In this document: positions 8,678 through 46,327 of the stretch, in pieces | How the letters are laid out: the number at the start of each line of letters is the position of its first letter | Numbering within the stretch: the stretch's first letter is position 1 | DNA from: Vermamoeba vermiformis | Taxonomy: Eukaryota | Length of the DNA: 64,000 bases | Direction of reading: 5' to 3' | NCBI GenBank assembly: GCA_045837725.1 | Contig: JBEWZL010000083.1 | Span: forward strand, 124,001-188,000 | Notes under the pieces: model-generated | Told to the model about the DNA's origin: nothing | Databases searched by the model: none | Seen by the model: the letters and a program-made list of their open reading frames with translations, nothing else | Made by a program: the position numbers and the translations under genes

Positions 8678-10079
8678 CTAATGACGGAATCCCACATGAT
8701 TCTTGCTTACTAAGAAGTAGCCAAGGACCTTGACCCACAGCAAGCCCATCACAAACACGGCGAATATGACCGCTAAAGGACGTACAATCTTCTCGCCTTC
8801 AAACGCGAATTTGTTGCGCGGCGCATCCTAATTAACCACACGATTAGAAGTCATAAAAATAGTGCCCCTGTTCGATACATACTCGTTCGATTGCTTGTTC
8901 GTGACGTACTTCAGCCATGACACGTGTCAACTCGGATAGCTCATCTTGTTGTTCCTATATGCTTGATTAGGCACATGCACTCTATATAAGTATTGCTTAC
9001 CTTGACGCGCTTAGCCAACATGGACAAGTGCAGCTCAGTGTTGTCGCGGAGATGTTTGCCAATGTCTTTGCGGTACACCTATCCCTCTGATTAGCGAATG
9101 ACGGCTTATACATATGAAGTATCCATACCAAAGCTAGACAGCCGCTGTGCGAGAACGGACAAGGCACCGCAGCGAACTCGCATTCGTCATCGAGGTGGAT
9201 CTGCAACTCTTTTCTTCGTAATTCGAGACCACAGCCGTCATTAGGGCAAGTAAAGGGTCTCATCAGGCAATTTTCAACATGCTCCTGTTGATTATTAAGT
9301 ACAAACCCTTCGTGTCTTATTATATCGTGGTTACGCACTTCATAAGCACAATTGAACACTTTGTGATCTGGATCGTACGGACAAATTCGTTGTAACCAGG
9401 GGCAATCTTCTTGTTCGTGCTTTGGCATATCCTATTAAGACTGAAATGAGAATCAAGACAGACTGCCATTCATATTTAATCAAGCAGCCTAATTTTAGAA
9501 AATTTTTGGTGGATCGTGACCACAAGATTTTCCGAATAGTGTCGTAAAATTTGATCGTCGCATAGCCAATCAAAATCAACACAATACCTTTCTAAACGAT
9601 ATGTATGTGCACAGATCACTATTTGCACAAGCCACCTTTACAAACTCGCAATCATTAGCTAGATGCGCTTCAATTTCAGCATCAGTTCCGCGGAAGTCGC
9701 ATTCCCCTTCACTGCATCGTCTCTTTAGTGGCATGTTTTTCAGTAAACGCTAAATTTCCTATGATTAGCCTTGGATCAGATCAAGATCTCGTTTGGAACT
9801 TGCCATCAGAGGGATATTGGGGCGGACTTCTTGAACGGTAAAGCACTTGGGGCATTCTTTAGGTGCTGCCATGTAGCAATTCCAGCAGTAAATCGTACTG
9901 CAGCACAAAGTCTCAAGCGGATTGCGCGGCACCTGTGGATTCAAAATTAATGAACCAGAAACTAAGAACAACGGCGTGCATACCTCTTTGCAAACAGCGC
10001 AAGATATCTCATCCAGCCACTTTTTAGTCGGAGCGGAACTCTCTAACAAAGAAGAATCGAGGGAATTTGAAAAGTCCAT
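8678..10079 (-). CDS. RING plus TRAF-type zinc-finger protein with a C-terminal transmembrane anchor
   Basis: CAVCKE..CCSTIYCWNC..CPKC RING; HEQEDC..CPYDPDH and CPNDGC..HLDDEC..CPFSHSGC fingers; last exon PLAVIFAVFVMGLLWVKVLGYFLV before the stop at 8678. Confidence 0.75.
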
Positions 10080-10360
10080 TTAATCGTGCTGAGTTGCGTT
10101 GCTCTCAGTATTGGATAAACAAATACTGATGTCATCATCAAACAGGACCAATTGTAAAATCGGGCTGAAACTGCAATGGTTTTTCTATGGAAATTTGAAG
10201 CTTTTCGAGCTTGTCGTCAGATCAATTTCCATTCGTTACACTAGTAAGCAAGCGAGTAAGATTGGTGGGAAAAAGACTTTATGTGGTCCTTCTATCCAAC
10301 CACTATATCTACAAATTTACAAATGATACATACTCTACAAGCAGAGCAGTCAAATCCAGC

Positions 10361-13300
10361 TTAGTAACCTTGAGCAACCAACCATTTGGAAGTCTCGTCT
10401 CGAGCTCGAGACAAGAAACCAGCGTGACTGCGAATGGTTTCAACAGTTTGCTTGATGGTACGCTCAATGCCGGTTTGATCCTTGTCTGCGAAGAACTTTT
10501 CAACTTCTTCAGCGCGCTCCACAGTGGTGAAGTCAGCGGCAGCGAAGGAGATGATGCGGTTCAACAAGAACTGAGTGTTGCCGAACTTCTTCTTGAGGTC
10601 GCTCCAAGAGTTGCGAACAAAGTCCCAGCAGATCTCACGACCAGCAGCAGTCGAAGCAACGCCCATAATAGGCACGTAGAAGTCTTGGTCGCGCACTTTG
10701 CCGCTGCTCATGGCGTACTCGATGGTCTTCTTCAACAACTCGGGCTTCTTGGTCAAGGAAATCGAACGCAAGGTACGGATCTTGTCTTCAGGAGTGCTGG
10801 CATTCTCGTACAACTTGACCATAGTGTCGTACTCGGCTTGATCTCCGTTGCGCATGACAATCTTGAGAACGACGTCACGCAAGTCAGCAGCCAATGAAGA
10901 CTCGTCCTTCACGTAAGCTTCGAAGCGTTTCTTGGCCTCGGCAGCGACTTCCTCATCAGTAGCGAGGTTGTTGATGACGACAGCGCGGAGCAACTTGTTG
11001 AGGTCGTTTTCGCCTTGAACTGAGTCCCAGCCCAACTTCTTGTAGACAGGCTTGAACAATTGGGCAACGAACTTCTGGATGCGAGGATAGGACTCCTCGG
11101 CGGAGAAGATGGTTTGAACTTCAGCGAGATTGGCGCTCAAGTCGGCCCAGACGGGGTACTTCTCTTCGTTTTGGTATTGTTGAGCGAGGGCAAGAGCCTA
11201 CAAAGATGAGATTAGGACTTGATTTAAAGGACACATGCGAGAAAAATTTGAAGTGAAATGAATTGAATCAGAATAATATGATTCCGGTTAGCTTTTCTTC
11301 TTCAGGCGTCGGAAGAGGGAGCTTGTTATCATCAGTTCAATTCGATGGAACATGCAACCTCGTGACATTTTCTCGCGATACTTACTTGAGACAAGGGAAT
11401 GAGACCAGCCTTGGCAAGAGCGAAAGCGTCGTTTTGCAAGCCCAAACGATCAACAGCGCTGAGCTCGGTGACGTGCTTGGCAAGTTGTTGAGCCAACTCA
11501 GCAGAGTATTGAACGCGATAGACACCACTTTGACCACTGTTGAACTTGACGAAGGGAGCACTTCCAGCTTCGGCGATTTCAAACTCGTGGCTCTTGGCTG
11601 AACAACAAATGATTAATTCAGGGCTCACCACAAGGAAAGGATAGAAAATAAGAAAGAGAATAGAATCTATTCTCCCTTGGGTAACAAGCTTTGTCATGTG
11701 GAGGTCAAAGCCCCTTGGGGGGAGAAATAAAAAGAGAATATTGCACCGGGTTAGTCAAGAGTCATATTGCACATGTGCATGACCCCCGTACTTTGGCAGT
11801 GCGTTGTATGTAACGAACAACTTACTATTGAAAGTGATGGGGTGAACCTTGCCGTTGACGTTCACAGCCAAGTTGATCCACCACAAGGCAGTGTCGTCTT
11901 CAGCGGAGGCAGGACCGGAGTTCAAGAAGCGCTTTTGGGTGGCACGGAACTTGCCATTGCCCAAGCTCTCGACTTGAACAACAGGGTAACCGATGCAAGT
12001 AGTCCAGTTGGCCATCATTTCAGGCACTGGGTGGTTGCTGGCCTCGGCGAACGCACGCCACAAATCAACAGTGGTAGCATTGCCGAATTGGTGGCGCTTC
12101 AGATAGATGTTCAAACCCTTGCGGAAGTTGGCATCACCAATGAAGTCAGCAATGGTGCGGATAACAGCGGCACCTATTCAGTAAGTGTTAGAACTTGATT
12201 AAAGAAAAAGATTTTAGAAAAAACAAAATTGATTGAGCTTTGTATCAGAATTTAGGTGGTCCACAGTAATCATCGGACAGGAATAACTGGCAAAATAAGA
12301 ATCATCATAGAAAGCTTGAGGAATGTCGCAAATAGTGCACTAAACAATACTCACCCTTGTTGTAAGAGATGGCGTCGAAGATCTCATCGATGTCGTGCGA
12401 GTTCTTGACTTCAACTTCAATAGGATGAGAGCTCTTCAAACCGTCGAGGTTCAAGGCGCTGAAGGTGTAGCCGGATACGAAGCGAGTCCAGACATCCCAC
12501 TCAGGGAAAAGGTGGTCGATGGCTTGGTTGCCGACCCATGTGGCGAAACCTTCGTTCAACCTAAACAAAAACATTGAGATTGAGTTACGTGATTTGTTAA
12601 AGCAGGTAGATAAAGTTGATTATGGTCAGAACTTGATCGTAATTGAAACACTCATAGGCGTCATGTCAAATATGAGTTCATCATGTGAAAATCAATCAAA
12701 TGATGTGCGACTTGGCAAGTCGAGTATGAAACTTACCACAACTCTTTCCACCAGTCCATGGTTACCAAGTTGCCGAACCATTGATGAGCCAATTCGTGAG
12801 CGACAACATAAGCAACTCTGAAGCGCATGTTGATGCTCGACTTCTCGTCAGCCATCAAGGCAGCTTCACGGTAAGTGATCAGACCCCAGTTCTCCATGGC
12901 GCCGGCAGCAAAGTCGGGAATGGCAACCATGTCTTGTTTGGGCAGAGGGTAGGGGACACCATAGTAGTCCTCAAAGTATGAAAGGACCTTGGCTAGAAAA
13001 GCAGATCGTGAGTTCAAGGATCTAGCAGCAGAAGCAACTAATACTTACTTCCTACATCAAGAGCGAAGAGACCTTGATCGGATTTGCCCTTGCCGGTGAA
13101 GACGCGCATAGTGACACCCTTTAAAGGAAAAGTTAGATCGCGATCTACATCAGTCGATGAGGGATTCGAACTTACTCGGCTAGTCTTGCTCTCAACAAAA
13201 TCAAACTCGCCGACAACGAAGGCCAGCAAGTAAGTAGACATGATCGGGGTGACATCAAAGCGAACAGTTTTGGTCTTGGCAGCGGCATCGTGCGACTCCT

Positions 13301-14050
13301 GAACAGGAGGCATGTTGGACAAAGCCTAGAAGCAATCACCATTAAAATCGCGTCCCTTAGCAATATCATCAGTATACTTACTGTTAGGTTCTCAGGAACT
13401 GTCAAGGTAACTTCGAAAGTGGCTTTCAAAGCGGGCTCATCCCAGCAAGGAAAAGCTTTTCGAGCGTCTAAAAATATCAAAAAATCAGAAATTATGTCCT
13501 ATAATTGAGGCATCAATAATGCTTACCGACAGGCTCAAATTGAGTGCAAGCCATGTACCTGAAGATAAATGAAAAAGATGAGATTAGCAAAAATCGTCAA
13601 AAAAAATCAAAAATATTTCAAATAAATCATAAACACCATCGATGATGTTATGAGAGTTTTAAGAGGTGGTTGACAAACTTACTTCTCCTTTCCGTCCAAA
13701 AAGTACTTGGATCTGTAGAATCCATTGAGCTTGTCACTGAGGATACCCTCGTACTCAATCAACAAGGTAGCATCACCAGTAGGAATCTCCTTATCAAACT
13801 CGAAGGTAGCAGTGTCATCCTCCTTGTGATAAGAGATCTTTCCGGCGAGCTTCTCGTTGTTGACTTGCACATGAGCCGAGTGGATATTAATATCCACGGC
13901 GTGCAAAGTGATGCTCTTGGAGGCCTGCTTGACTGACAAAGCAACACTTTCGCGACCAGCGAAGGTGAAGGCTTCCAAGTTGGGAGTCAGGTGCAAGCTG
14001 TACTTCAAGGGCTTCACATTGGTGGGGAGCAGATGACGTTGTTCGGCCAT
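10361..14050 (-). CDS. NPEPPS: Puromycin-sensitive aminopeptidase-like M1 metallopeptidase with ERAP1-like C-terminal domain; snoRNA host gene
   Basis: GAMENWG exopeptidase motif, HELAHQW zinc motif, [19 protein letters not shown]; strong codon bias. Confidence 0.92.
11260..11343 (-). ncRNA. Intronic box C/D snoRNA, SNORD100-like guide (18S G equivalent to human Gm436)
   Basis: 8-bp terminal stem GAATTGAA/TTCAATTC, C box CTGATGA, D box CTGA; GCTCCCTCTT ahead of a D'-like CCGA is antisense to conserved 18S GAGAGGGAGC, and CCGGAATC is antisense to the adjacent GAUUCCGG. Confidence 0.8.
11665..11803 (-). ncRNA. Putative intronic H/ACA-type snoRNA with two pocketed hairpins and AUA boxes
   Basis: Hairpin 1 GCACTG..GGGGTCAT/ATGACTCT..CGGTGC; hairpin 2 TCTCCC..GGCTTTG/CAAAGCT..GGGAGA; each followed by ATA 15-16 nt from the upper stem; boxes are non-canonical. 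Confidence 0.5.
12236..12316 (-). ncRNA. Intronic box C/D snoRNA, snR38/SNORD1-like guide (LSU G equivalent to yeast Gm2815)
   Basis: Stem AGCTTT/AAAGCT, C box ATGATGA, D box CTGA; GCCAGTTATTCCTGT before CCGA pairs over 15 nt (one G-U) with conserved LSU ACAGGGAUAACUGGC. Confidence 0.85.
12616..12695 (-). ncRNA. Intronic box C/D snoRNA, U20/SNORD20-like guide (18S 3' region U)
   Basis: Stem TTGATT/AATCAA, C box ATGATGA; 3' end ACGATCAAGTT-CTGA shares the TCAAGTTCTGA end I recall for U20; antisense to 18S AACUUGAUC-like sequence. Confidence 0.72.
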
Positions 14051-18267: not shown

Positions 18268-20093
18268 TTAGTTCGAACTATTTTCGTTGAGTTGTTGTGT
18301 CAGTCGCATAATCATGCGCTCAAGGGCCAAGCGCTCTTCTTGTCGGATTTGTTCCAGATCGCGCACATAGTCCACCTTCGCTTCACTGAGCTGTTTCAGG
18401 GCATCAAAGTGCAGTTCTTCGAGGGCCGAGAGTTGTGACATGGACAAGCTGCTCAAATTCAGCCCAAACATGTGCTCGCACTCCAAGCCAAGCTGGGCTG
18501 CTTGAGGGTGCATGGATTCAAGGCTTTGCTGCAACAAATCATACGCTTGTGCCTTGCGCAGTAGTTCCTGCACGTCTTCATCGTTGTTCGTGTCGTACTG
18601 TTGTTGTCTTCGCACGCGTTTGGGAGTGACAGCGCTGGAGTGCAGTTTCGAGGGTGTTACTGGCGGAGTGTCTGCTGTGCGTGGTGGCAAATTCTTGCTC
18701 ACAATCGACGCGTATGAGAACGTCTGTTTGGCAGTAGCTGCTGCACTAGTGTTTGTGTTATTTGAAGTCTGAGTCTCTTGTGCTGCGTTGTTGTTCTGTT
18801 TCACTGGTGTAGCTTTTATTTGCTTATCTGAATGATGTGCCAGCACTGCATCAACGCTCTTCTTGATCTCCGCGATAGGTGTCGCGCTGGATGTGACAGG
18901 TGTCAGTGGTGATGCCTTCTGTTCCTGCACTTCATTGGTCTTATTCGCTGCGTTGGGATTGGCTTTGGTCTTCTTCTTCTGTTTCTTTTTCTTAGCATCA
19001 CTAGCGTTTTTAGTATTGTTGGTGTTATCTTTGTTCTCTTCTTCGAGCAACAGATCCGCCAAGGCCTGTGACTCTGTTTCGAGCTTGTGCCACTTCTCTT
19101 GCAACAATTCAACGCACTTCATCAATCGGGCCTTTGTGTCGTTGTCCCTGGCACTTTCCAAGCTCTTCTTTGCAATGTCAAGTGCGCTCTCATTGGCGTT
19201 GTTTTTGCATCGTCAAATCAGCCCCGTGCTCGAGCAGCAGTTCAATCACACTCGTCGCACCGTGCGTGGCAGCCATGAGCAGTGCAGTGCGACCCTGTTG
19301 ATCGCGAGCATTGATTGTTTTTTGCAGCTGTTGACGACGCTGCAGAGTGTTCTTGTTGACACTCAAATAGCTGTTGATTAGACCTGCCACTGTCTCGAAG
19401 TGTTGGCTGCAAATGACACGTGTCAATTAGTGTCGCTCGATCGTCACACCACTTACTTTGCAGCAGCACAGTGTAGTGCAGTCATCTTGCTGTTGTTGGT
19501 CACGGTCAGATCTGCGCCTTCACTCTGCAACAAGTGCGCAATTTGATGGGCACCAGCATTAGCAGCGAACATGAGCGCTGCAATATCACACATTAGTTCT
19601 CGGAATTGTTTGGACATTCAACTGCGTACCAGTGTCACCATTGCGGTTTTTGATGGCAATGAACTGCAGCAGTCCACCGCGCGAAGTGTTGGCCTTGACA
19701 TGCTCGATCAACTGCTTGGCTACCTGCAAGTGACCTGTGTAACAAGCCCAGAAGAGGGAGTTGTTGCCACTGCTGTATGTAGCTTTCAGTGGATCTGCTC
19801 CAGCCTTCAACAGTACTTCAACCTGGATCGTAATTAGTAATTGTAGCGGATAACTAGAGGATACTCACTATTGAACTCGATCCATTTCTACACGCTAACA
19901 TTAGAGGAGTAAATCCAGAAGCGTCGGCAGCGTTAACGAGGGTTGGATCTGATCCAATCATTTGAATAATCCTAATAATTTAATTAATTCAGATTTCCCC
20001 GCGATTAAATTGTCCTAATACCCACATATTTATATCACCATCTTGAACTGCGTCAAAAATTGTTGGCACGTAAATATCTTGATTGAGATCCAT
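18268..20093 (-). CDS. Ankyrin-repeat protein with C-terminal coiled-coil and low-complexity region; apparent +1 frameshift near 19205
   Basis: GNNSLFWACYTGHLQVAKQL and GRTALLMAATHGATSVIELLLEHGAD ankyrin repeats; frame changes before NNANESALDIA. Confidence 0.8.
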
Positions 20094-24873: not shown

Positions 24874-26763
24874 CTACAGCTCTCCATACAGATCAGAACT
24901 CTCGTTGCGCTTGTTAGCCTCATCGATCTGAGCTTGACGCAGTCTGGCAGTGAGGCCCGAGACCTTATTCTGCAGCTGGTACTCAATATCTGCAATGTAG
25001 TGCTGACAGTCTTCAATTCTGTTGGCCAGTGCTTGGGCTTGCATGTCTGTTTTCTGGCTCAGTTCTTTGCGCAGATTGGCTGCTGTCTTTTTCAGCTTGT
25101 CAACCTCTTCAACGATCTTGTCGGTGATTTGTTCTTGCATTTGACCGAGCACATTGAAGACACGTGATTCAATGTCAGTTACGCGCTGGTCATCGGTGTC
25201 AGCTGTCTCGCTGATATTTAAGAACGAGAGTTGAGAGCGGATCCACTCACTGATCTGCATGAGTTGCGAGAGGATTGCTTCAGAACCACGTGATCGATAC
25301 CGATCAATGTCACTGTCCACTTGTTGAAGCAGGGATCTCAATCGTGCTCTAACAGTGCGCGCTGTAATGATATTCTCTGAGACTTCATCTTCAGCTCCAT
25401 TTGTCACGCCATTCGTGTTGCTATTTTTGGGTGATTTTGGTTCACTGAATTGTTGCTTTTCACCGCGCAGTTCATCCTCTTCACTCTTAGGCTCATCAAT
25501 AACGACGTGGTCACCATTCTCCACATATTATTGTTGTTGTTATGTCCATTGCTCTCGTCATTGTTGTTATTGTTACTGTGTCTGAAGCCACGTGACTGTC
25601 GTTGAGCTCGTGCACGCAATTCTTCACCGCCGCCTTGACTAATTTGCACTAGACGCGTGATCCAATATTCACCTTGCTCGCGATATCGACGAATGCGCTG
25701 TTCAATGTTGTCACTTTGCCACTCGAGTTCAGTCAACAGTGCCTCGTCCACGCCCTTGTCCCACTCGAGCGCTACACGCAAGTGATCGCCACAGATGACG
25801 AGTAGCGTGCAGAGCTCGGACATGACGAGCACATTGGGGTCTTGCAACAGCGTGGCAATGCGTGTTTCAGCCTCGCGAATGGACTGCACCAACATCTGTC
25901 TGTGACACGTGTCAGAGTTAGAACTATTAAATGATGATTATCAATGGACCTACCTCCTGCTCTTCACTCGCTCCATCAATTCGAATCTCTCTTCAACGCT
26001 GAACAGGTACTCAAAATCGGATTTGATTTCCTAATTCGGCAAATGAGAATCGAGACAAAGCAGGAAATGTGATCGTAACTTACCCCAAGTTCTTGTAAGG
26101 CATGGCGAATAGTCTCAATAAAAAATCTCACTAAGAAATCTTCTTTGTCCATTGTCACTATGCGATCAGGAAATTGCTCTAGTTGAATACCATTCAGATC
26201 CAGCGCAAAATTGATTTTTCGTGTGATTGGCTTCTTCTTAACGACGGGGTTGTTAACTTCGAAGAATATCAAGAATTCTTGCCAATCGTAGAAGAACTTG
26301 GGTATGCGTTGAAAGAACTGTTGGAGCTGCATCCTCCTCTCGACGATTGCTTCTGGTTCGAAGTTGCCAAATAACATTTTGGAGGGGAAGTCAGGCAATC
26401 GACCTCCGAAATTAGTCTTGATCTACCGAGCAAATAGAAAGAATTAAAACAAGTCTCAAAGGTGGATCCGATCACATACCTTGTTGTACAAGTCATGAAA
26501 TTCGCTGTAGCGCTTATTTATCACCCACTCATATTCTCCGTTGAGCACATGCACCGTGTATGACTACGAAGCAAAAAGTTAATTTGTTTGATTTTTATTA
26601 TTATTTTTCGTATTTCTTTTTCAGCATAGTTTTCTGATCTTCAGATTTCAACCAAACGAATTGCATCCGTTGCAATATATTTACCACTTACAATGTATGA
26701 TTTGCCGCGCTTGTCTTTAAGGACCTCCGCTCGAGGTATTTTGACGTGCCATGTAGACTCCAT
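24874..26763 (-). CDS. PX-domain protein with C-terminal coiled coil
   Basis: WVINKRYSEFHDLY and LPDFPSKMLFGNFEPEAIVERRMQLQQFF PX motifs. Confidence 0.82.
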
Positions 26764-26914: not shown

Positions 26915-29846
<2,932 letters not shown>

Positions 29847-29992
29847 AGTCGCCAATTGTAATAAATATATTTATTATGTTTTTAAATCAATTCCAATGCT
29901 CGAGCAGAAATTTTACTCACGTTTCGCGATTTGGCAATTTTTGCCCAGTCTTGGTGAAATTAATTTACGTGCTTAGTCTAAGAAAGAGGGGA

Positions 29993-30087
29993 GGGAGAGG
30001 GATTGCTGCAGGCTGGTCTGCCGACCGTAGCCTCTCGCTCGCGGTCGGAGAGCTGCGCCTGGATCACACTCACTAGATCCGCCTCCC
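29993..30087. other. GC-rich intergenic imperfect hairpin, candidate structured RNA or DNA element
   Basis: Nested stems GGGAG..GGAT/ATCC..CTCCC, CAGGC/GCCTG and CCGACCG/CGGTCGG within AT-rich flanks. Confidence 0.35.
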
Positions 30088-30722: not shown

Positions 30723-33234
30723 ATGGATGATCGGCCCAATCAGGTAAGCCATCAGTCACCGAGATCGTGAAAATTTTTGTTGGGATCTGCTCTTTACCAA
30801 TTAATTAATGCTCAAATTGGTTTTAAAATTACACGTAAAATATGTATAAATATTTATTTGCATTATGCAGGTCGACGATACAGTGCGCACCACACCGCTG
30901 CCGATCACACCGCGCCAAGTGCACTCCATCCACACCGCGGGCCCTGCAGCAATGTTCGCGCAGTTCAGAGCCACAAATAGCAACAAGACCCACACTGCCT
31001 CACCCGTGAAGACGCGGCACGGTCGTTCAAAAAGCTTGACTGAAGGTGGCGCGAAGAGTGACTTCTTCCTGTCTGATACGCGCAGTAATAATAACTCCAC
31101 TCTAGACTCGGAGGCAGATCCGTCACCCGCTCCACCGCTCGAACAACACACCCTCGCAGTCGCGACACCTGACACCCTCACGCCGAGCACCTCACCGCGC
31201 GGCATGGTCGTGCGCGTGCCACCAAACACTCCTGCACGATCTCCGGGCCAAGAACTGCGATCACGTGTGCTCGAACTCGAACAAGAGTCACGTGATCTGA
31301 CTGACAGGTGCGAGGCTCTCAAGCGCGAGAATGAGGTGCGTGACACTAGTGACTGCTTTATATACGAGATATATTAACAATAAGCTTCTGTTGTGCAGCG
31401 ACTCAATGCCGAGCTCATGTCACGTGACAATCTCAGCGAATCAGAAGCGGAACAACTCATTCAAAACCTTGCATTCATGACCACCAAATTGACCGCCAAA
31501 GAAGAGGACGTGCGCGCGCTAAATATAGAACTGAAAGATAAGGAGAAGCTACTGACTGAACTGACCAATGAGGTAAGTGATAGAGTGCTGTCACGTGATT
31601 GGTGTACTGACTTGTGTTTGACACCTGTCAGCTCGCACCGTACACCAGTGTCACTGAACTCAAGTCACGTGTCACTGAATTGGAAAAGAATTCAAAAGAA
31701 TTGGAAAGCTCATTGCAAGAGGTATGTTGACAGCGGAATTATTCCCAGTGTGCCGTGTCATTGACATATTTGCAGGCACGGAGCACACTCGACTTTATCC
31801 AGAAGGAAGCTAAGGCCGCAGATGACACGGCATCAACGCTGTGCAATCAACTAAAGGAGCGTGACAGCGCAGTGACTGGTCTGCAGGCGCAAGTGACCAA
31901 TCTCGAGCAGGAGGTTGAGCGGTTGCGGGCACTGGCGCAGGGGATGGACACGGTGCAAGAGGAGAAGGAATCTTTGCAGAAACAACTGCAAACACATCGC
32001 GAACGGGTGGAGCAGTTAGAACGAGAGCGCGAAAGTGCGACCAGTGAACTGACCAATCAGAACACAGCACTGCACAATCGCGTGACAGATTTGGAAAGTG
32101 AACTGACACAACTGCGCGCAGACCTGTCACGTGCCGAGAGTGCAGCTCAGACAGCGCGGACCGAGAGTGCGGCACAACAGAGTGACGCGACGGAACAACA
32201 CCGCGCACTGCACCAGCAATACGACACACTGCTGCACGAGGTCAAAGAGCTCCGAATGACTGCTGCGGACTTGGAAGAGCTGCGCAAAGAAGTGACGCGC
32301 AAAGACGTGCAGTTGACACGTGTCAAAAACAAGAACGCAGCGCTGGAGGACGAGAAGTTGAAGCTGCACGATCAGTTGAAGATCAGCGAGGTCAGTGTGG
32401 AGCGGTTGACTGAGCAGTTGACGCGCGGTGACAAGAGTGTCCGAGAGCGCGTGACACAGCTCGAACAGGAACTAAAGCACGTGACTGCTGAGCACGAGCG
32501 CGTCACTGAACAGCTGGCCAATCAGCGTGCTCAACACGAGCGTGACTTGCAAGCACGTGATCAGCAGCGCACAGCACTCGCACAACAACTGCAGCACGAG
32601 CAGAGCAGTGCAGCCACACTGCGCGAGGAGACACAGCGCAAGACACAAGAGCACAGTCAGCGCGTCAGTCAACTCACCGCGCAAGTCACCGAGCTCACCA
32701 AGGCACGTGATGCGTTCAGAGAGTCGGCGAAGAAATTAGAACAACAATTGGACAGTGCGCAGAAGAGTGCCAGCAGTGCCGCGGAGAAATACAGCAGTGA
32801 ACTGACAGCCCTGCGCGATGAACTGCACCGTGCTGGCACTAGTCTGCAGCAGTACGAGAGTGCGAGCAACAAACAGCAGGGTATGTGTAGTGATGGTAGT
32901 ATTATCTGGTGTTGATATCAATACTGACTGTTGTTAATTAGCTGCAATCGTACCTCCGCACACAGACATGATTGCGGCACTCAAAACACGAGCAGATCTG
33001 ATGAAAAATCACGTGACCAAGCTCCAGTACGTGCTAGTGATGCCTGTATATCAATTGACGACTTACACATATCTATTTAGAACCAAGTCTGCTGTACCCG
33101 CCAAGGCATCACTGACCTCCGTCCTGGTCACTGTGCTATTAATAGCTCTCGCGCTAGTTCTCGGCCTGGCCGTCGTGTCACGTGATCAGTACCACAAATT
33201 GGTGCTCTATGCACAACGGTACTTGCCTAAATAG
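30723..33234 (+). CDS. Long coiled-coil tail-anchored protein (golgin-like)
   Basis: ATG at 30723 then GTAAGC intron; more than 450 aa of heptads; C-terminal TM LTSVLVTVLLIALALVLGLAVV. Confidence 0.75.
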
Positions 33235-33387
33235 GCAAATTTTGTTCATAATTCCCTTTTTTGTACAATAAAATGCTTCGTTCACTGTAGCTGGTCAACG
33301 ATTGGTCAAATGTCACGTGATTCAACGTGCGAAATTGAATGGCGCGTTCAATGTCAGCAATCAACAGTGCATCATCAGTGGTATACA

Positions 33388-35538
33388 ATGCTGCAGCGAG
33401 TATATCGTCACGCACTAAATAAGGCTATTCGCACCAATCGGCGCTCAACCAGTGCTGTCTCTGCTGCACTGTTTAGTACGGATCCAGTAACGCTAAATTA
33501 ATTTCTGATTATTATTAAAAAATTGAATGCAGCTAATGCCAACTAAATGTTCAGTAATAGTGTCGCCGGAGTCGAAATTGACAATTAATTATTTTTTTTG
33601 GATCCAGGCAGATCACAGACCCGAAATATCACTGTTAATCTATCTGATAAGCGTAAGTATAATATCGACATTAAATATTTGTATTTATTTAACTCTCCGA
33701 TAAATTGTGAACTCACTTGGCGAACGGATCCAGCTCAAGAAGCAGCGGCAGATCAGCCCGCAGTGGTGTACATGTACACTGAAGAGGACGCAGAGAAACT
33801 ATCGAGTGTGTGGACCAAGGCTATCGCTACAGACTTCAAGGGCAAGAGTGAGTAGTGATCACGTAACCGAGTAATTGGATGTGGGCCACTAATAACGCCC
33901 TATTAGCTGGTCAAGTTCTGGTACATTACCCGACTGAAGGCAGCAATCTCTACCAGGGCTCTGACGCACAACACGGCCCCAAGAAGTAAGTGCACCCCCC
34001 CCTCCCCCCAGTCCCTCACTGATCACGTGCACAGACCACACCGCATCGTATTCGTTGGACTCGGCAAGCAGCGCGCAGTCACAGTGCCCTCTGTGCGCAA
34101 AGCTGTCGCACACGCCGTGGACAAGCTCAAAGCACTCAAAGTCACTGCTGCCACGCTCAGTGTGCCCAACCTCGCTGCCATCAACCAGGGCCAGGAACAG
34201 AAGGCAGTCAACCAGGGCCAGCCACAACACACAGCCCTGGTCGAGGTCCTCAGCACAATGGCCAACACCGCCGTGCTGGCAGACTACAGCTTCGACAAGT
34301 ACCTCACGCGCACTGACAACAAGAGCACGCCCCTCGCATCACTCACACTGCTCGCTGACACTTTGCCACCCAATGCCGCGCAGTTGGTGCGTGAGGCCGT
34401 GGTGATCGGTGAATGCACGAATTACGCACGTGACTTGGCCAATGAGCGCGCTGAAGTCGCAACACCGGCCTACTACGAGCAACAAGCGCGTCAACTGCAA
34501 GCCGAGTACGGTGCAGTGCTGGACATTGAAGTGCTGCAGTACGACGAGCTCCAGCAGCACGGACTCAATCTCATCGCGGCTGTCGGACAGGGTGCACCGG
34601 TGTTGCCGAGATTGGTGCTGCTCAAGTACCGCGGCAATCCTGACTCCACTGGTACGTACCGCACTCTGACACGTGTCACTCACTGACCTGTGCGCAGAGG
34701 AGATTGGTCTCGTCGGCAAGGGCATCACATTTGACACGGGAGGTCTCAATTTGAAGCCCACGAACTCGATTGAGGTACGGCCATTGGCACGTGTCACACT
34801 CGCATCTGCACGACTGACAGGTGTCACAGGATATGTACATGGACAATGCTGGTGCAGCAGCAGTGTTGGGCACGATGAAAGCTGCGGCCAAGTTGAATCT
34901 CAAAGTCAATCTGCGCGGCGTGCTGGCCCTGGCAGAGAATTCAATCGGTCCCAATGCGTACCGGCCAGGTGCCATCATCACCTCGGAGGGCGGTCCTTCA
35001 GTGGAGATACGCAACACTGACGCGGAGGGTCGTTTGGCCCTGGCTGATGCACTCAACTGGCTGCAGCGCAAGAACAGTCCGCACGTGATCGTAGACCTCG
35101 CGACGCTGACTGGAGCCTGTGTGATGGCACTCGGTGAATACGCCGCGGGACTGTTCAGCAACAGCACGGCACTCACGCAACAACTGCAACGCGCGGCTGA
35201 GCTGTCTGGCGAACGTGTGTGGCCGGTAAGTAGCTGGCACGGTGCTGCGACTAGTGGACAATACTCACCCCTGCACGTAGCTGCCGCTGTTCGAAGAGCA
35301 CAGTGCAGATCTGAAGGGCACGCAGTCGGACATTAAGAACATTGCCGTCAAGGGCCGCGGTGCTGGGGCCTCGTCTGGCGCAGCCTTCTTGAAGGAGTTC
35401 ATCAAGGACGGCGTGGAGTGGGCACACCTCGACATTGCGGGCACGGGTGCGAGTACGTTCAAGAAGGGCCACGTGCCTCAGGGTGGCACTGGATTCGGCG
35501 TGCATTTGTTGATTGAATGGCTCAAAACACGCGTGTGA
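33388..35538 (+). CDS. Leucyl aminopeptidase (M17), probably with a mitochondrial presequence
   Basis: VGKGITFDTGG, NTDAEGRL, DLATLTGAC and WAHLDIAG motifs. Confidence 0.92.
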
Positions 35539-35760
35539 GCACTGGGGCAGTAAATTGAATGCTAGCCACGCACTAGGGTGTTGATTTATATTTATATTTG
35601 TGTACTGGTCGAGTGTGCATTGTTTATCGGCACAACACCCAATTGACAACTGTCAAACACCGTCCTGCGTCTATTCAGTTGTGCGCGAGTGACTAGCAGA
35701 CCTCAAGAGTCACGTATTTATTGAGATTGCAATATTATCCAGAACTCTATTCACCACACT

Positions 35761-37437: not shown

Positions 37438-37707
37438 CACTCCTGCGGGCGTGTTTGTACAGCGCTATTAGTAAAACATTAATTCCAAGTACTACTAGAT
37501 GAACATTCATATGCAGTATTATCTCTCACCATGACCTCTTGTTCTCTGTAACCGCCGAGGTGTTCTTGATCTTACGAAATTTCGCTTGTTTTTTGTCTTT
37601 GTCTCTTTCCTGTCGGTGGAGGATTGAGCGGGAGCATGTCATTGAAGCCCAGTTGTTTTATATTGTATACATATCATATCATTCAATACACAACAAGTAG
37701 TATTAAA

Positions 37708-39240: not shown

Positions 39241-39491
39241 TATAACAATATATCCATATTATTCCTCGCACATTTTAGCTGGATCTGATCTCGATCCCGA
39301 TCTGGATCGTCTTTGCAAACTGCAGAACGGAGTTAAAAATCGAAATAAATTCCATTCTGCATCAATCATGCATACTACTGCACTGTACATTGATTTCGGA
39401 GTTCCGTTGTGCTCTCGGAGTGCGGTTAAGTCACGCGGAGTGTTTTGAACTCATTCGCGATCACAAAAAGATCAGAACAACACAGCTAGCC

Positions 39492-40810
39492 ATGGACGTC
39501 GAGAACGTGTCGGAATTGATTGATTATGTATATACCACTGAGGACTTCAACTTGAAGCCCTCTATGCAGGAATATCAGAAATTAAAGCGCATCATGAAGG
39601 TGATGGTCAGATTCTACCAGAAGGGCACTGACAGCAAGAAAGGTCAATTAGAAATCGCTACTGATGAGCGCACCAAGTTGATTGTGGACAAGAAGATGAT
39701 TGAAGAACAGATGGCAGCGATAGATCAATTCCCTCCGTTCCATCCCAAGCGTCAAGAATACGAAGGCCAATTAGAGCGCGAATTAGAAGCACTGATCGAA
39801 CAAGACAAGGTGTACGAAGAGCAAGAGAAGAACTTCACCAAGCTGCTCGAGTGGAGCAAGGGCGTCGTGCGCGCCGTGGAGTGGTTGGAACTGCGTCTGG
39901 AACAGTACTGCAACTCTCTCTTCGACGGTATGTGCATGATGTAATTTATGTAGTATTATGGCGATATAATCAGTGGTTATCGTGCTCCGATGTCAGATCG
40001 CACGACTGATCGTGTTTGTTTTTAGATCTCAACCTCGAACAGAACCCCATTAAGTTGACTGTTGATGAATACAAATTCTACAGCAAGTGCTTGGACGAAA
40101 TTACATACAACTTGCAAGAGAGTCAAGACTTTTTCAACGCGAGTGTGGATGGACGTTTGAAGATGTTCCACCAACTCGAGAAGTGCATGATTGAGGCGCA
40201 GTTGGAAGTTATCCGCAAGTACCCCGTCGACAATCTGCGTCGCAAGCACGTGGAGAGCAGAGCTGTTGAAGGACTTGGAGTACGTATCCGAGAACATGAA
40301 AGAGAATCCACAAGTGCTGAAACACCGCGAGAAGATGCGTCTGATGCACGTGGACTTCTTCAAGCTGTTGAAGTGGCAGCGCGAGATGATGACGCGCTTG
40401 CCCTTCGACTCGCCCGAGCTGTTTGTTGGCGGTGACTTGGAACAACTCAAGCACGAGCTCTCTGAAAAGGAGGGCAAGAAAGAGGGTACGTGTCACGTGA
40501 TGTTGACTAAATATGGCAATGTGCTGACCAAATATGGCAATCAGAATTCCAGTACGCGAATGGTCAGGGCCAGACTGACGGCCTGCACGTCAAGTACAGA
40601 GAGTTCACTGCGAGCCAACAGACGGAGGCGAGTGATGGCACCTGTCCCGTCAAGAGTTCAGTGAACGGCGCTGATTCAGTGAACGGCGTCAATTCAGTGA
40701 ACGAGGCGATGAATGGTTTGAACATGAACGAGTGTCCAGTGATGCACAAGAAGAGCGAGGACAAGGGCCAGTTCATTCACAAGGTGTACGATGAGAACGT
40801 CAAGATTTAA
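39492..40810 (+). CDS. Hypothetical helical protein with an internal two-fold repeat and two C-terminal CPV motifs; apparent +1 frameshift near 40256
   Basis: Three exons; frame change HVE/AELLKDLE; last exon ...GTCPVK...ECPVMHKK...NVKI*. Confidence 0.7.
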
Positions 40811-40964
40811 GCACTCGTGTGGTGTAGCATATATATATAGACCTATAATACGAGGTGTTACGCGCAGTTTTGTTAATTGAATGCGCATCTAAATTTTGAG
40901 CGAATAAAGTTATTTTGTGACATAACAATAGCGTACCACAACTCAGGATTATTTGCTTATATAA

Positions 40965-42538
40965 ATGGATGATAGCGACGATGATTCACTTATTATGGCA
41001 GGCATGCAGTCTGATAACTCAGATGCAGCTGGATCTGACGAAGAAGATTATTTTGAGTTCAACGGCGACTTGAGCAGTGACATTGCCCCCGACGTCGATG
41101 AGATGGAACTATGTAAGTGTATCGTAATTAATTACAAATTCGTTATTTATTTAAATATTTGAATTAATTTTGGCGGGATCAGTTTCATTTGACGAGGACG
41201 AAGACGATGATGATCTGATGAATACAGAGACTACAGATACCTCAAATAAATATCGCGAGGCGCGCAAAGCATTGTCGCCTTACATAGCAGTGAATGAGCT
41301 GCCAGGACGCGAAACAGAGCGCGATGAGATCTACAACATTGTGCGCGACCACCTCGACGATGAACTCGGCTGCTGCATATGTACGCGAGACTACTAGTGC
41401 GCTATATACCGTACTGACGACTGCAGATGTGAGTGGTGTGCCAGGCACGGGCAAGACAGCGACAGTGCGACACGTGGTGGCACAACTGCAGCGCGAGGTG
41501 AGTGCGCGCGAAGTGAAGGACTTTGTGTGGATCGAGATCAATGCCATGAAGCTCACCTCACCCAATATGGCCTACAGTGTGCTCTGGCAACGCCTCACCG
41601 ACCAGAAACAACAGCCCAAGAAGGCGCAAGATCTGCTCGACAAACGATTCAAACAGCGCGACACCAAGCGACCCATGTGGTACGTATGCGATATATATAT
41701 ATATATATACACCTTATATGCCAGTCACTAAATACGCGTCAGTGTGGTGCTGCTGGACGAGATCGATCAGCTGGTGACGCGCAATCAGCTGGTGCTGTAC
41801 AATCTGTTTGACTGGCCGCGCCGTGCCCACTCCAAGCTGATTGTGATCGGCATTGCCAACACGATGGACTTGCCTGAGCGACTGCTGCCCAAAGTGCACT
41901 CGCGCTTGGGTCTGCAAAGAGTGTCATTTGCAGCCTACAGCAGTGCGCAGCTCGAACAGATCGCGCGTCAGAGACTCGGGTCCTATGTGACGCTGTTCGA
42001 CACTGCCGCACTGCTCTTAGTCGCGCGCAAAGTCGCTGCCACCACTGCTGATGCGCGTCGTGCGCTCGAAGTGCTGCGCCGTGCACTCTTGTTGGCTGAG
42101 CGCGAGGCTGAAGCGCGGCCCAGTGCCAGTCCCGTGCTCGTGACAGCACGTGTCGTGGATGCTGCGCTGGGAGCTCTGCTGGCACGCGCGAAATGTCCCG
42201 CACTGCGCTCAGCACCGCGCCACGCACGACTGTTGGTGGCTACTGTCGCGCGACTGAGTGGCACAGTGACAGTCTCCGAGGTGCTGGAGAGATATTCCGC
42301 GCTGTGTCTCAAGTGGCAGGTGGCACCCCTCGGGCCCTCACAACTGCGTGCCGTGCTGTCCTCATTGGCGGCGTGTCGACTGGTCACGTGCGACCACGAC
42401 CGCGTGGTGCTGTGCATTGAACGGGTGCGTGTCCGTGCTCGCGCGTGACTGTACTAACATAGTTATTTTGTATTGTAGGACGACATGTTGTTTGCACTGA
42501 GCACTGATGACTTGGCGATGAAATTTCTCAACGAATGA
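40965..42538 (+). CDS. ORC1: Origin recognition complex subunit 1 (AAA+), short acidic N-terminus, no BAH domain
   Basis: LPGRE, YVSGVPGTGKTATV, EINAMKLT, LDEIDQLVTRNQLVLYNLFDWP, IANTMDLPER. Confidence 0.88.
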
Positions 42539-42614
42539 AGCACGCAGAATGAAATTCTTGCAAAGTATTGAATGTACAGAGAAGTGGATTGTAAATAAGC
42601 AAATTTATTGTATA

Positions 42615-42896
42615 TTACTGGATGTACGTGCCCTCCTTTTCACTGCGCATAGTTCGCCTCACATCTGCAGTGGTTTTGCTCTCAATGCCGTGCTTGATGT
42701 CTTGCAAGTCGTGCACCGTCTCTTGTTCAGGGCGAGGGACTGCTTTGAGAGTGTCGGGCATGTCTCTGTCTTCAATGTCTTGATTCTCTTTGCCGTGCAG
42801 ATAAGGTTCGAGCTTGTCTACGCGCACTCTGCTCAAATCTGGTGGATTGCCGCCGATTGTGCTCTCATTTGTATCGTAATCGAGTTTGTCTGACAT
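42615..42896 (-). CDS. Small hydrophilic hypothetical protein (93 aa)
   Basis: Single-exon ORF with an A/C-rich leader before the ATG and gene-like codon usage. Confidence 0.6.
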   Translation of the reverse strand: MSDKLDYDTNESTIGGNPPDLSRVRVDKLEPYLHGKENQDIEDRDMPDTLKAVPRPEQETVHDLQDIKHGIESKTTADVRRTMRSEKEGTYIQ

Positions 42897-43067
42897 GTCT
42901 TTGTTGTTTTTGTATTATTGATTACTGAAATAGACGAGAAACAAGCCTTAAATACTCCCGGAGCGAATTCTCAGCGCGATCCGATTGAAATTTGAACAAA
43001 ATTGAAGCCAAGCGTGAGTGATTATACATCTGTACACCTTTATTATATAGTAAATACATTTGCGATA

Positions 43068-44020
43068 TTACAGCACATCCCAGAGCTTCTCGAATGCAGT
43101 GCAGATCTTACCGCAGGCCACAGAGGCAGAGAGCGGATAAGACGAGAAACAAATCTTCTGATCGACGTAATCAAACACGTCTTCGCCCTTAGAATAGGCA
43201 CCCACCACAAATACGACTGGCTCGTCTTCGGGGAGCGTTTGAACGAAATTGAACAGATCGACCACTTCACCTGCATCAGTAGAGCCTGTTGGTATTATTA
43301 GTTATAAGTAATATATTGGTAGTAATATATTAATTACTCACCAATGCGGCGACAACCCACAGGCAGATGTGCAGTGACTGGATTCTTGACAATCTTCAAC
43401 AAAGTCTTGCTGCCCTCTTTCTCAGTGCTGCGAATCTTCATCTCATGTAGTAGTTGCACTATATATATATAATTGCCAGTGTTAGTCGAATGATTTAAAC
43501 TCAGATCCACCGCTCTGGATCGCGATCACCTACCCATGAGTCCAGCAAAGCGCTTAAATGTGCGTGGAATGCGTGTCTGTGGATTGAGTTCAATGAGCAC
43601 ATTCTTCTTGGTGTGTATATACACTTTTAATAGGCCTGCTTTGTTCAGCGGACTGTCCAGCAGTGTCAACAGGCACTGGATCCGGGTCAGAAATTAGTGT
43701 GCGTGCATATCACAAGATTATCATATGTGGTAGAGGAGAATATGGTCCATTACAGGCATTAAATTAATTAACTGATTTTTGTCGATCGGATCTGGATTCA
43801 AAAAAATAATTAATTTAATTACCTGGTGCGTGATGTCAGGTCTGGCTTCAGAAAAGTCCTTATTCATCTTCTTCATAAATGTAATGTGATCGTCGCAGTT
43901 CAATAGCTCGTGGCCCTTCTTGCCCTTCATAGTCTCCAAGAACGCGCCTTCTAAGATGACGATCAGTTGCTTCTTGCCGCCAGCGTGCTTCTCTGCCTTG
44001 TCGCGTGTGAGATTAGACAT
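43068..44020 (-). CDS. EMG1: 18S rRNA pseudouridine N1-methyltransferase Nep1/Emg1
   Basis: [57 protein letters not shown]. Confidence 0.95.
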
Positions 44021-44182
44021 GTGTGTTATATGAATATGCGCTCTTGTGGCCTATTCTCGTGACGTTCAAGTGAACTGAGTGCTCCATCCGCCGTTCATTT
44101 TTATTCGCCCAATTCCAGGTACTAGCACAGCGCTCGCGCGATCAGTGCGCACTATACACTACACAGCACTGACACAGTACGA

Positions 44183-46327
44183 ATGACCTCGTTTGAGGTG
44201 TTGAACTGCTCCTCTGAGAGCGACGAGTTTCCAGCGCTCAATCTGCAGACGGGACAGGGCGCATGGCAGACTGACGGCTATGTGCGCGAGGCGACTATAG
44301 ACCTTGGATTTAATATGCCCACTAGCTTTGATAAAGTCGAATTAGGTACGCTAGATATCGATTATTGGATAATTATAAATAAGCGTGACAGGCAATCTCG
44401 GATGTGCTTTCATCGAGCTACTCGTGGCTAAAGACGCTGATAGTGATGAATATGAAGCACTAGTAGCACCTGTAGCGCTGCAATCATACAGCGAGAGCAA
44501 ATCCAACACGAACAGAACGAAGAGCTTTGTATTCACTATGAAAGACAAACTCAAAGCTAAAGTGGCGCAACAGAACTGGACCAAGCTGCGCATCATATGC
44601 AAGCAGACATTCAACACTACCATGCCGATCGGACTCAGTTTTGTGCGCATCAACAGCACCAGCAAGACTGCGCCAGTTGTGAATGCGAATGTGAAGCCGA
44701 GCAGTGCTAATACTACTACTCATACTACGCATAGCACTAGCACTAATAACAACACGAACACAGCGAGCAACACGAGTGCACTGCCCAAGAGCAGCAGCAG
44801 ACTGGTGTTCGACGAGTCCCCCGAGGACGAAGAGAGTGCTGCCGCGCTGTTCCACAAGATCAAGCCGCAGTCCCTCACCTTCACGCAGTTGAAGGCACAG
44901 GTCGAGCAAGAGAAGCTCAAGACACCTGTCAAAAAGACTCCCGTGGCCAATAATAGCGCTGCACCTGCGCGGGACAATCCGTTCAGTGAAACAAAGAGTG
45001 CCACCAAACCCGCAGAGAAGAGTGTTAATAACAGCAATACTATAATAGGCAATAAGAGTGCCACTGACAAGAAGACGACTGACAGCAAGAAGAGCGACAG
45101 TAACACGGCTAAAAATAGCTCCAATAATGATACCAAAAATAGTAATAATAAGATTGCAAGTGACACCAAGAGCACGAAGAACGCATTGCCAAGTAAGGAT
45201 AAAAATAGCGCAAAGAATGACGACAAGAAGAAGAGTGTGCCACTCAACAAAGTGATGGTAAGCACGTGATTTCACTGAACTCCATTTGACACGTGTCACA
45301 TTTGACAGGCAGGTGTCACCATTGTCATCTCGGGCATTCAAAATCCTGAGCGCCACAAGCTGCGCACACTGGTCAAAGAGATGGGTGAGTGCCACCACGT
45401 GTCATGCACCTGTCAATCACTAACTCGCACCAGGTGGCAAGTACAGCCCTGACTGGGACGAGGGTGCCACGCACTTGATTGCCGTGTTCCCCAATGCCCC
45501 TAAAGTCCAACAAGCTGCGCAGGACGGTGCGACTATTGTGACCAAAGACTGGATCTACGACAGTCACAAGCGCGCAGCACGACAGAATGAACGACAGTAC
45601 TTGTTGGGGGGCAACAAGAAGCATAAGACGAGTAAGTGTCACACCGCTGTGCTGCGATGAGTGTTAACAGTGCTGTTTGACAGAGGACTCAGACGAGGAG
45701 TCAGACTCGGGACCGAATGAGTACGACTACGACGATGGATTTCTGGTAGCGGACGATGCAATGGACGGGGACTACGATCCGTCAGTCAAGGCCAAGCCCA
45801 AGACCAAGCCAAAGAACAAGGCAGTGATGCTCGCAGATGATGACATGGACACCATCAACGAGGCCGAGCAGTGGCTGAGCAGCACCAAGTCACAGTCCAA
45901 ACACGGTGTCAAGCGCAAGCAGGAGGACGAGGACGAAGAGGAAGAGCTGCTGCACCTCAACAAGAAGGTGAAGCTCGACAAGAGTGCTGCCAAATCCGCG
46001 GCCAAGCAACAGCAACACGAGTCAGACTCGGGCGAGGGCACTGAGGGCATGGCTGAAGATGACATTGAAGCGCAAGTGCAGCAGTTGAAGCGCGGCAAGT
46101 TGAGTGGGGACAATAAGACTAGCAACAAGAACAACAACAACAAGAATAGTAATGCTCACAAGAACACGAGTCACAAGCCTAATGCAGTGCAGCAAGATGA
46201 CGACGATGAGCTGACTGATGAGATGCGTGAGGACGAGATCCGCTCTCATCTCAAGCGTGCGAGTTCACAGCTGAGTCGCGACAGTCAGGGCACACAAGAA
46301 CTCGCTGAAGATGAGCTGTTGTATTGA
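44183..46327 (+). CDS. XRCC1: XRCC1-like DNA repair scaffold (N-terminal domain, one BRCT, acidic tail)
   Basis: GNLGCAFIELLV and WTKLRIICKQTFN..PIGLSFVRI NTD motifs; ISGIQNPERHKLR..GGKYSPDWDEGATHLI BRCT1. Confidence 0.85.

Follow-up and report, generated by a model that had tools for sequence, protein, structure and literature searches.

In a 64-kb window of the Vermamoeba vermiformis genome (contig JBEWZL010000083.1, forward-strand positions 124,001 to 188,000, numbered here from 1), the 12-bp palindrome TGACACGTGTCA recurs inside genes far more often than chance predicts, and we tentatively interpret this word as a DNA site with dyad symmetry, recognised by a dimeric factor and most like the palindrome of the TALE homeodomain proteins, that may double as a splicing branch site. 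A sequence-only reading of the window had noticed nine exact copies, at 8918, 19414, 25903, 27916, 29092, 29381, 32314, 34667 and 45287, and our search found all nine, or about one perfect copy per 7 kb. We used 100 dinucleotide-preserving shuffles of the window and analytic Markov models of orders 0 to 5 as baselines for enrichment. The shuffles contain a mean of 0.01 copies (maximum 1; 0 of 100 reach 9), and the Markov expectation rises from 0.004 at order 0 to 0.254 at order 5. The sequence-only reading had proposed a 5th-order model as the check that could overturn the enrichment; the enrichment persists there (9 versus 0.254) and so is not removed by that model. In an unbiased count of 12-mers in the window, TGACACGTGTCA comes out as the commonest, tied at nine with the one-base-shifted GACACGTGTCAA. 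With mismatches allowed there are 9 perfect, 6 one-mismatch and 10 two-mismatch copies, and the reversed-sequence control has 0, 0 and 4.

The real conserved unit is a pair of TGACA half-sites, not the CACGTG core, and TGACACGTGTCA is its commonest form. The wider word TGACA-N2-TGTCA (TGACANNTGTCA) occurs at 15 sites where 0.15 are expected. Its spacing is strict: all 15 sites have the N2 spacer, there are none with N0, N1, N3, N4 or N5, and N6 and N7 have one each. The reverse arrangement, TGTCA-Nx-TGACA, stays at background level with 0-2 occurrences per spacing. The two central bases are CG at nine sites, GG/CC at four, GC at one and AC at one, so both are G or C in 14 of the 15. Nine sites contain CACGTG; the other six retain both TGACA halves without it, and for this reason we give a TALE-like reading more weight than one based on basic helix-loop-helix (bHLH) proteins. 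Relatives of the palindrome had been described as lying mostly right of 18 kb, which agrees with our counts: TCACGTGA occurs 15 times, 14 of them beyond 18 kb, and TGACAGGTGTCA occurs twice. Likewise, neither the repeat-protein gene (1160-2065) nor the M1 peptidase gene (10361-14050) holds a copy of the 12-mer, as had been stated. The hexamer CACGTG occurs 73 times in the window, with 8 occurrences in 1-24000 and 65 in 24001-64000. Across this 24 kb boundary G+C content and the CpG observed/expected ratio shift modestly and CACGTG density sharply.

To place the sites relative to genes we used a home-made dynamic-programming gene finder, in which coding sequence is scored by a 3-periodic Markov model learned from the Pfam-positive frames and splice sites by matrices derived from 14 RNA-proven introns. 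RNA runs mapped on 25500-45400 gave 63 joints, and the intron evidence was drawn from 15 of the 63; among these 15, 14 are GT..AG introns of 45-124 nt. The RNA-proven introns have 5' ends of the form GTA[ACT]G or GTAGG and branch-like pentamers such as CTGAC, TTGAC, CTAAT, CTCAC and similar. We take the splice signals here (GTAAGT/GTACGT, yTRAy, YAG) to resemble those of fungal-type introns. The gene model contains 107 introns (7,984 bp, median 59 nt, 12.5% of window bases), 28,284 bp of coding sequence (9,428 codons) and 27,732 bp of remaining sequence, and the host is an intron-rich eukaryote with short GT..AG introns. By predicted class, 10 of the 15 TGACA-N2-TGTCA sites are intronic, 4 are coding and 1 falls in the rest:

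8918..8929, TGACACGTGTCA: exonic in a weak minus-strand model, where it encodes Leu-Thr-Arg-Val; the alternative is a candidate 92-nt minus-strand intron whose end is 9 nt away.
18894..18905, minus strand, TGACAGGTGTCA (sense strand TGACACCTGTCA): exonic, within an open frame of 314 codons, where it spells Leu-Thr-Pro-Val.
19414..19425, TGACACGTGTCA: in a predicted minus-strand intron, acceptor 7 nt away in a 50-nt candidate or 43 nt away in the 86-nt model version.
25903..25914, TGACACGTGTCA: in a predicted minus-strand intron of 54-58 nt, acceptor 3 or 7 nt away; the preceding C makes CTGAC.
27916..27927, TGACACGTGTCA: in a predicted 55-nt intron of the plus-strand kinase/CBM20 gene, acceptor 7 nt away; preceded by A, the sole intronic copy not fitting yTGAC.
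29092..29103, TGACACGTGTCA: in a predicted 57-nt intron of a plus-strand gene, acceptor 8 nt away; no yTRAy other than its TTGAC lies 8-40 nt from the 3' end, and a second CACGTG lies at 29065, 30 nt upstream of the word.
29381..29392, TGACACGTGTCA: in a predicted 56-nt intron of a plus-strand gene, acceptor 7 nt away; TTGAC is the only yTRAy candidate, and a second CACGTG lies at 29350, 34 nt upstream.
31619..31630, plus strand, TGACACCTGTCA: in a predicted 59-nt intron of a coiled-coil gene, acceptor 1 nt away, with CACGTG upstream at 31592.
32314..32325, TGACACGTGTCA: exonic, within an open frame of 394 codons, where it spells Leu-Thr-Arg-Val.
34667..34678, TGACACGTGTCA: in a 46-nt intron (34652-34697) of the plus-strand M17 peptidase gene, acceptor 19 nt away, with a second CTGAC downstream of the word; RNA-proven by the joint 34650->34697 in contigs of runs X5 and X7.
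34815..34826, plus strand, TGACAGGTGTCA: in the following M17 intron of 55 nt (34775-34829), acceptor 3 nt away; CTGAC is the only yTRAy candidate, and CACGTG lies upstream at 34788; RNA-proven by the joint 34772->34828 in runs X21 (2 reads), X23 (3 reads), X5 and X7.
35644..35655, TGACAACTGTCA: between the end of the M17 gene (35538) and the start of the next predicted gene (36149), the sole site outside predicted gene bodies.
45287..45298, TGACACGTGTCA: in a 51-nt intron (45258-45308) of the plus-strand gene with an XRCC1_N domain, acceptor 10 nt away; TTGAC is the only yTRAy candidate, and CACGTG lies at 45263, 27 nt upstream; backed by a spliced X5 contig whose 14-letter loose end equals the upstream exon end (window 45243-45256).
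60514..60525, plus strand, TGACACCTGTCA: in a kinase-domain gene, within an open frame of 435 codons, where it spells Leu-Thr-Pro-Val; alternatively, in an in-frame 102-nt intron candidate that ends 4 nt after it.
62558..62569, TGACAGCTGTCA: in an intron of the M18 peptidase gene, predicted at 43-55 nt, acceptor 4 or 16 nt away, with GCTAATTATAGC in the same intron.

The division of the exact copies into seven in small introns and two in exons, made earlier from the sequence alone, is reproduced by the gene model, with a weak exon assignment at 8918. Among the seven introns, the one at 34667 has a direct RNA joint, the one at 45287 has contig support and the other five are predicted. Finding at least 10 of 15 sites in 12.5% of the bases has a binomial P = 1.5e-6, and shuffled intron interiors give 0.010 sites. 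Within introns the word lies toward the 3' end, at a mean relative position of 0.78 (Kolmogorov-Smirnov P = 0.016). With the model's acceptors, the distances from word end to acceptor at the ten intronic sites, in order, are 43, 3, 7, 8, 7, 1, 19, 3, 10 and 16 nt; at 19414 and 62558 there are nearer acceptors, 7 nt and 4 nt away, that we judge at least as good.

This position overlaps that of the putative branch point. In 9 of the 10 intronic copies a T or C precedes the word, so that the left half reads yTGAC, the local branch-site consensus. In eight of these nine the A of yTGAC is 10-28 nt from the intron end, using the model's acceptors. At 19414 the distance is 16 nt with the nearer acceptor only, and the 86-nt model intron puts the A outside the 8-40 nt window. 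Across all 107 predicted introns, yTRAy peaks 14-23 nt from the 3' end. The suggestion in the sequence-only reading that the word is a strand-symmetric branch-point motif therefore holds for the left half, as yTGAC in 9 of 10 intronic copies, but we found no RNA-level reason for the mirrored right half.

The location of 10 of the 15 sites in introns, toward the 3' end, would also suit an explanation that we regard as unlikely, in which the word is an RNA-level splicing element: an extended branch-site or 3'-intron signal in the pre-mRNA, with the left half as branch sequence and the remainder bound by a splicing factor or paired with the CACGUG often found near the 5' splice site, some 30 nt upstream. 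TGAC of the word coincides with the 14-23 nt yTRAy peak, the word is the sole yTRAy 8-40 nt from the 3' end in 5 of its 10 introns, and pyrimidines flank the intronic copies on both sides, which is a strand-specific feature. Five of the 10 palindrome introns carry another CACGTG, about 27-34 nt upstream, versus 5 of the 97 others (Fisher P = 4.8e-4), and the minimum-energy fold pairs both CACGUG in 3 of the 10. Folding is, however, no better than in shuffled sequences (mean z -0.63, n = 9, versus -0.08±1.11, n = 55), and we dropped the idea of an RNA hairpin or intron-internal pairing because these z-scores are not significant. Where the word is absent, intron branch sequences do not extend past yTRAy, almost all intronic TGACAC belong to a full palindrome, and the word is present in only about 1 in 10 predicted introns. 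A splicing element would also leave unexplained 4 or 5 exonic sites and 5 exonic near-copies, all away from junctions. Strong consensus structures at 3' intron ends are known elsewhere, but in the account of Irimia and Roy they are tied to intron-poor lineages, the opposite of this intron-rich organism (PMC2483917). Finally, single-stranded RNA would not explain the perfect mirror image of the word, nor the dyad flanks of exonic E-boxes described below.

In coding sequence the word is written at synonymous positions. The exonic copies and near-copies all encode x-Thr-Pro-Val or x-Thr-Arg-Val. Thr-Pro-Val is written ACACCTGTC in 5 of 9 cases, where codon usage (1.5% each) predicts 0.13, and Thr-Arg-Val is written ACACGTGTC in 3 of 4 cases. 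TGACA..TGTCA occurs 4 times in coding sequence versus 0.1 after synonymous shuffling. The hexamer CACGTG is in excess too, with 45 coding occurrences versus 13.5±2.7 in within-gene synonymous shuffles (maximum 20 in 100) and 9.2±3.0 when codon order is shuffled, and the occurrences are spread over the three frames (16/24/5). By contrast, coding counts of nine other palindromic or related hexamers match expectation. The sense-strand flanks of the 45 exonic CACGTG mirror each other: positions -1/+1 are T18/A20 and G14/C11, and positions -2/+2 are G22/C21 and A12/T14, giving RTCACGTGAY. Dyad-symmetric flanks of this kind are predicted by a symmetric dimer that reads double-stranded DNA, and are not predicted by recognition of single-stranded RNA. 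CACGTG is also gene-specific: it occurs 9 times versus 1.2 in the coiled-coil gene and 10 times versus 2.0 in a kinase-domain gene, and many genes have none. We considered and dropped an exonic splicing enhancer, since the exonic CACGTG lie a median of 191 nt from a junction versus 135 nt for all coding positions, and a nucleosome-like periodicity, since CACGTG spacing has no clear peak.

Could the word arise from mutation alone? The sequence-only reading had offered a mutational attractor, and a neutral mutational or repair bias (quasi-palindrome correction by template switching, or sequence-specific short-patch repair) would make the word without function. The dominance of perfect over near-perfect palindromes would agree with such a bias, as would the coding enrichment of a second palindromic hexamer, TGCGCA (31 in predicted coding sequence versus 14.3±3.0 after synonymous shuffling). 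A process that perfects palindromes in general would nevertheless leave one specific word with one spacing unexplained, and it would have to spare the nine hexamers that stay at expectation. CpG observed/expected is 0.90-1.12 across the window, CACATG/CATGTG are not depleted in coding sequence (5 versus 5.4 after synonymous shuffling), and none of the 15 sites has a TG or CA centre, so the central CpG is not decaying through deamination; a methylation-driven CpG effect was dropped because the CpG ratio is about 1. Adjacent genes have very different densities, as do the first 24 kb and the remainder of the window. The mutational attractor is not supported by these results, and a functionless repair bias is decidedly improbable.

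We also considered common descent, with the 12-mer left behind by, or typical of, a mobile element or an intron that proliferates (like introners or the symmetrical introns of Hypoxylaceae), or else a preferred insertion target. Introns of this sort, internally symmetrical (PMC8469720) or transposon-borne, are documented. Perfect copies outnumber one-mismatch copies (9 versus 6), a 21-base sequence, ATTGACACGTGTCATTTGCAG, is identical in the introns at 19414 and 29381, and sites in neighbouring introns cluster, 148 and 289 nt apart. Against this, outside the word the ten introns resemble one another no more than randomly chosen introns do (mean best local score 5.49 versus 5.46±0.35, a value equalled or exceeded by 44% of random sets). 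The palindrome lies inside the intron, with 15-46 nt before it and 1-43 nt after it, and four further centres are found in the same word. By eye, with no formal test made, the palindrome introns have no flanking duplications. Because the exonic copies are written at synonymous sites of unrelated proteins, they cannot be insertions. We judge this origin improbable.

Paired sites in neighbouring introns bring up one more possibility, that self-complementary copies pair RNA to RNA and loop out the exon between them, causing exon skipping or back-splicing. The copies at 29092 and 29381 flank one exon, those at 34667 and 34815 likewise, and the kinase/CBM20 gene holds three copies. Several genes have single copies (8918, 25903, 45287), though, and no back-splice or skipping joint is among the 15 of 63 joints listed. 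A 12-bp duplex is short compared with the repeats known to circularise exons, and pairing explains neither the variable centres nor the exonic copies. We think this very improbable.

The word keeps company with other short sequences that resemble transcription-factor sites. GCTAWWWWTAGC occurs 7 times versus 0.12 expected, with 4 of the 7 in predicted introns, and contains CTAAAAATAG, which matches the MEF2 consensus YTAW4TAR; in the source of that consensus, CTAAAAATAG is the highest-affinity 10-mer of MEF2B (PMC7470950). CCWAATWWGG occurs at 8 sites versus 0.73 expected, with 5 of the 8 in introns, and CCTAATTAGG is among them; a yeast table gives CCTAATTAGG for Mcm1 and CACGTGAY for Met4 (PMC1779545). 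TTCACTGAAC occurs 7 times versus 0.28 expected, with 5 of the 7 in predicted introns. Their positions are:

GCTAWWWWTAGC: 27785, 29470, 33135, 36882, 45108, 60204, 62540.
CCWAATWWGG: in introns at 28621, 29494, 36463, 40528, 59701; elsewhere at 17973, 47521, 49747.
TTCACTGAAC: 4345, 27900, 36585, 36601, 40656, 44981, 45271, with a tandem duplicate in the intron 36569-36636.

These companion words sit in the 5' or middle part of introns, away from branch positions. A longer stretch, TTGCCTAATTWGGTA, which is like an Mcm1/SRF-type palindrome, is common to three introns of different genes. Upstream of the M17 gene, the intergenic stretch 33135-33320 contains GCTATTAATAGC, two GTCACGTGAT E-boxes and CCTAAATAGG within 190 bp, and looks like a promoter made of the same words as the introns.

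This sharing of introns, and of one intergenic stretch, with words identical to known MADS sites is one of four reasons for which we favour a protein-binding reading of the palindrome. The proposal in the sequence-only reading of an intragenic protein-binding signal is the best supported of its suggestions, through the symmetry and fixed spacer, the dyad E-box flanks, the synonymous encoding and the shared MADS-type words; with 6 of the 15 sites lacking CACGTG, however, the word points no less to a palindrome of the TALE-homeodomain type than to bHLH or bZIP sites. Under the dimer-site interpretation, a sequence-specific protein would bind the double-stranded word as a dimer, and selection would keep the word inside the transcribed regions of particular genes. 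In short introns its left half would supply the yTGAC branch site, so that one 12-mer would serve as both DNA site and splicing signal in an intron with almost no spare room, and in exons the word would be written into Thr-Pro-Val and Thr-Arg-Val codons.

Several observations weigh against this interpretation. Perfect copies outnumber one-mismatch copies, which is sharper than for most factor sites. The 3'-end bias in introns is what an RNA-level signal predicts, and the bases directly flanking the intronic 12-mers are pyrimidines on both sides, not complementary. Only 1 of the 15 sites is intergenic, which is odd for an ordinary transcription-factor site. All our figures derive from one 64-kb window, and the class counts rest on a crude gene finder that recovered 10 of the 14 RNA-proven introns and left parts of real genes in the rest. 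In addition, no TALE homeodomain gene is among the Pfam domains or open frames of the window. The Pfam domains in its open frames are XRCC1_N, KICSTOR C12orf66-like, Cdc6, UCH, oxysterol-binding, M1, M17 and M18 peptidase, protein-kinase and CBM_20.

If the word is a protein-binding site, then classic sites of the dimeric transcription-factor type are kept in 45-60-nt introns and even at synonymous codon positions, which would offer a handle on how compact, intron-rich genomes fit regulation into gene bodies; where such a site covers the branch point, nature would offer a clear example of one sequence that carries two codes, for DNA binding and for splicing. A broader proposal, which we consider quite unlikely, is that a dimeric protein marks the gene bodies of a subset of genes at or next to intron 3' ends, with the same 12 bases read as DNA by the protein and as RNA by the spliceosome. 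Were it true, chromatin or transcription state would be coupled directly to the splicing of tiny introns, and short introns would be a main home of cis-regulatory words (TALE-like, E-box, MEF2-like and SRF/Mcm1-like). Should the word prove to be an RNA signal, a lineage rich in introns, in which signals are as a rule degenerate, would have a branch-region element of unusual length and symmetry.

Some other features of the window touch on these sites. The region 26915-29846 appears to be a single gene that joins an N-terminal protein-kinase domain to a C-terminal CBM_20 starch-binding domain, and three perfect palindromes out of the nine lie in it. In contigs of runs X5 and X7, agreement with the window begins only at 29381 (the first base of a palindrome) and at 34656 (11 nt before another palindrome), and at least 255 unlike letters precede each match; these breaks may reflect a chimeric assembly, a second locus, or introns that diverged while keeping the palindrome, and we draw no inference from them. 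In many predicted introns (for example 4299-4403 minus, 23005-24088 minus, 38469, 40486 and 59684) the 5' splice site often runs on to GTACGTG, sometimes GTACGTGTCA, so that ACGTG(TCA) is common to it and to the right part of the palindrome. At 60034-60063 there are three tandem copies of CACGTGATCA, 12 nt apart, in a modelled exon reading Thr-Arg-Asp-Gln-Pro-Arg-Asp-Gln-Thr-Arg-Asp-Gln, and the GTGAGC ahead of them is a possible 5' splice site. The open frame at 1160-2065 consists of about 10 tandem repeats of about 29 residues each (pattern NVANPAPLVNVE.QKDV.V); it has no Pfam match, and E-box family words are absent from it save one CACGTG. A run of 18 G at 50380-50397 is, on the minus strand, a proline run in a Pro/Gln/Thr-rich open frame. 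By protein search the oxysterol-binding exon had two weak matches only (37-39% identity), the M17 exon had no close relative among the best 80 of 134 loci in a metagenome collection (top identity 32%), and Rfam and tRNA scans of the window found nothing.

In the literature on palindromic motifs with short introns or branch points, and on CACGTG over-representation in introns or coding sequence, our searches, which did not extend to the supplements of cited papers, turned up no account of this pattern. The exact 12-mer brought up only Ebola virus papers, none of them on motifs, and for the 10-mer core none of the matches listed was relevant by title or abstract.

The closest published likeness is to TALE proteins. 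The TGIF1 homeodomain was crystallised as two monomers on the palindrome ATTGACAGCTGTCAAT (PMC6158717), and the MEIS3 motif from systematic evolution of ligands by exponential enrichment (SELEX) is TGACAGGTGTCA (PMC5449588). These sites have the same TGACA half-site as the window's word, in the same inverted orientation and with the same 2-bp spacer, and the published forms TGACAGCTGTCA and TGACAGGTGTCA both occur letter-for-letter in the window. Many window copies also have an A/T-rich base before the half-site, as in the crystallised ATTGACAGCTGTCAAT. The published centres in these sources are GC or GG, whereas the window's centre is mostly CG (9 of 15), and our literature search found no data on TALE binding to a CG centre. 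The window sites differ further in lying in introns and exons rather than in promoters and enhancers, and in their sharper bias toward perfect matches. We therefore liken the word, on its sequence, to a TALE dimer site in an atypical location, and do not claim membership.

Class B E-boxes, bound by bHLH and bHLH-ZIP proteins, provide a second comparison. They include the CACGTGAY of Cbf1/Met4 and the HES5 motif GACACGTGCC, given with GACACGTG in the same table as MEIS3 (PMC5449588). The CACGTG core is present in 9 of the 15 sites and the window is rich in RTCACGTGAY with dyad flanks, but 6 of the 15 sites keep both TGACA halves without it, and the 12-mer has flanks GA..TC where the window's other E-boxes have T or G at -1. 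The enrichment in the window, moreover, lies within coding sequence. As a spliceosomal branch site, the left half of the word fits yTRAy at the usual distance from the acceptor, and the mirrored right half is without a known splicing role. Irimia and Roy (2008) associate a strong 3' intron consensus with intron-poor lineages, and degenerate signals with those whose introns are very short (PMC2483917), in contrast to this intron-rich genome with its very short introns. The stwintrons of Hypoxylaceae are internally symmetrical, proliferating introns (PMC8469720), and like the window's word they present a symmetric sequence in short fungal-type introns of unrelated genes. They are described as having terminal inverted repeats of 45-55 nt and full-length similarity, whereas here there is an internal 12-mer only, which is also exonic. 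Set beside these systems, what is unusual about the word is its placement, at intron 3' ends, over putative branch points and at synonymous exonic sites, and not the class of motif to which it bears a likeness.

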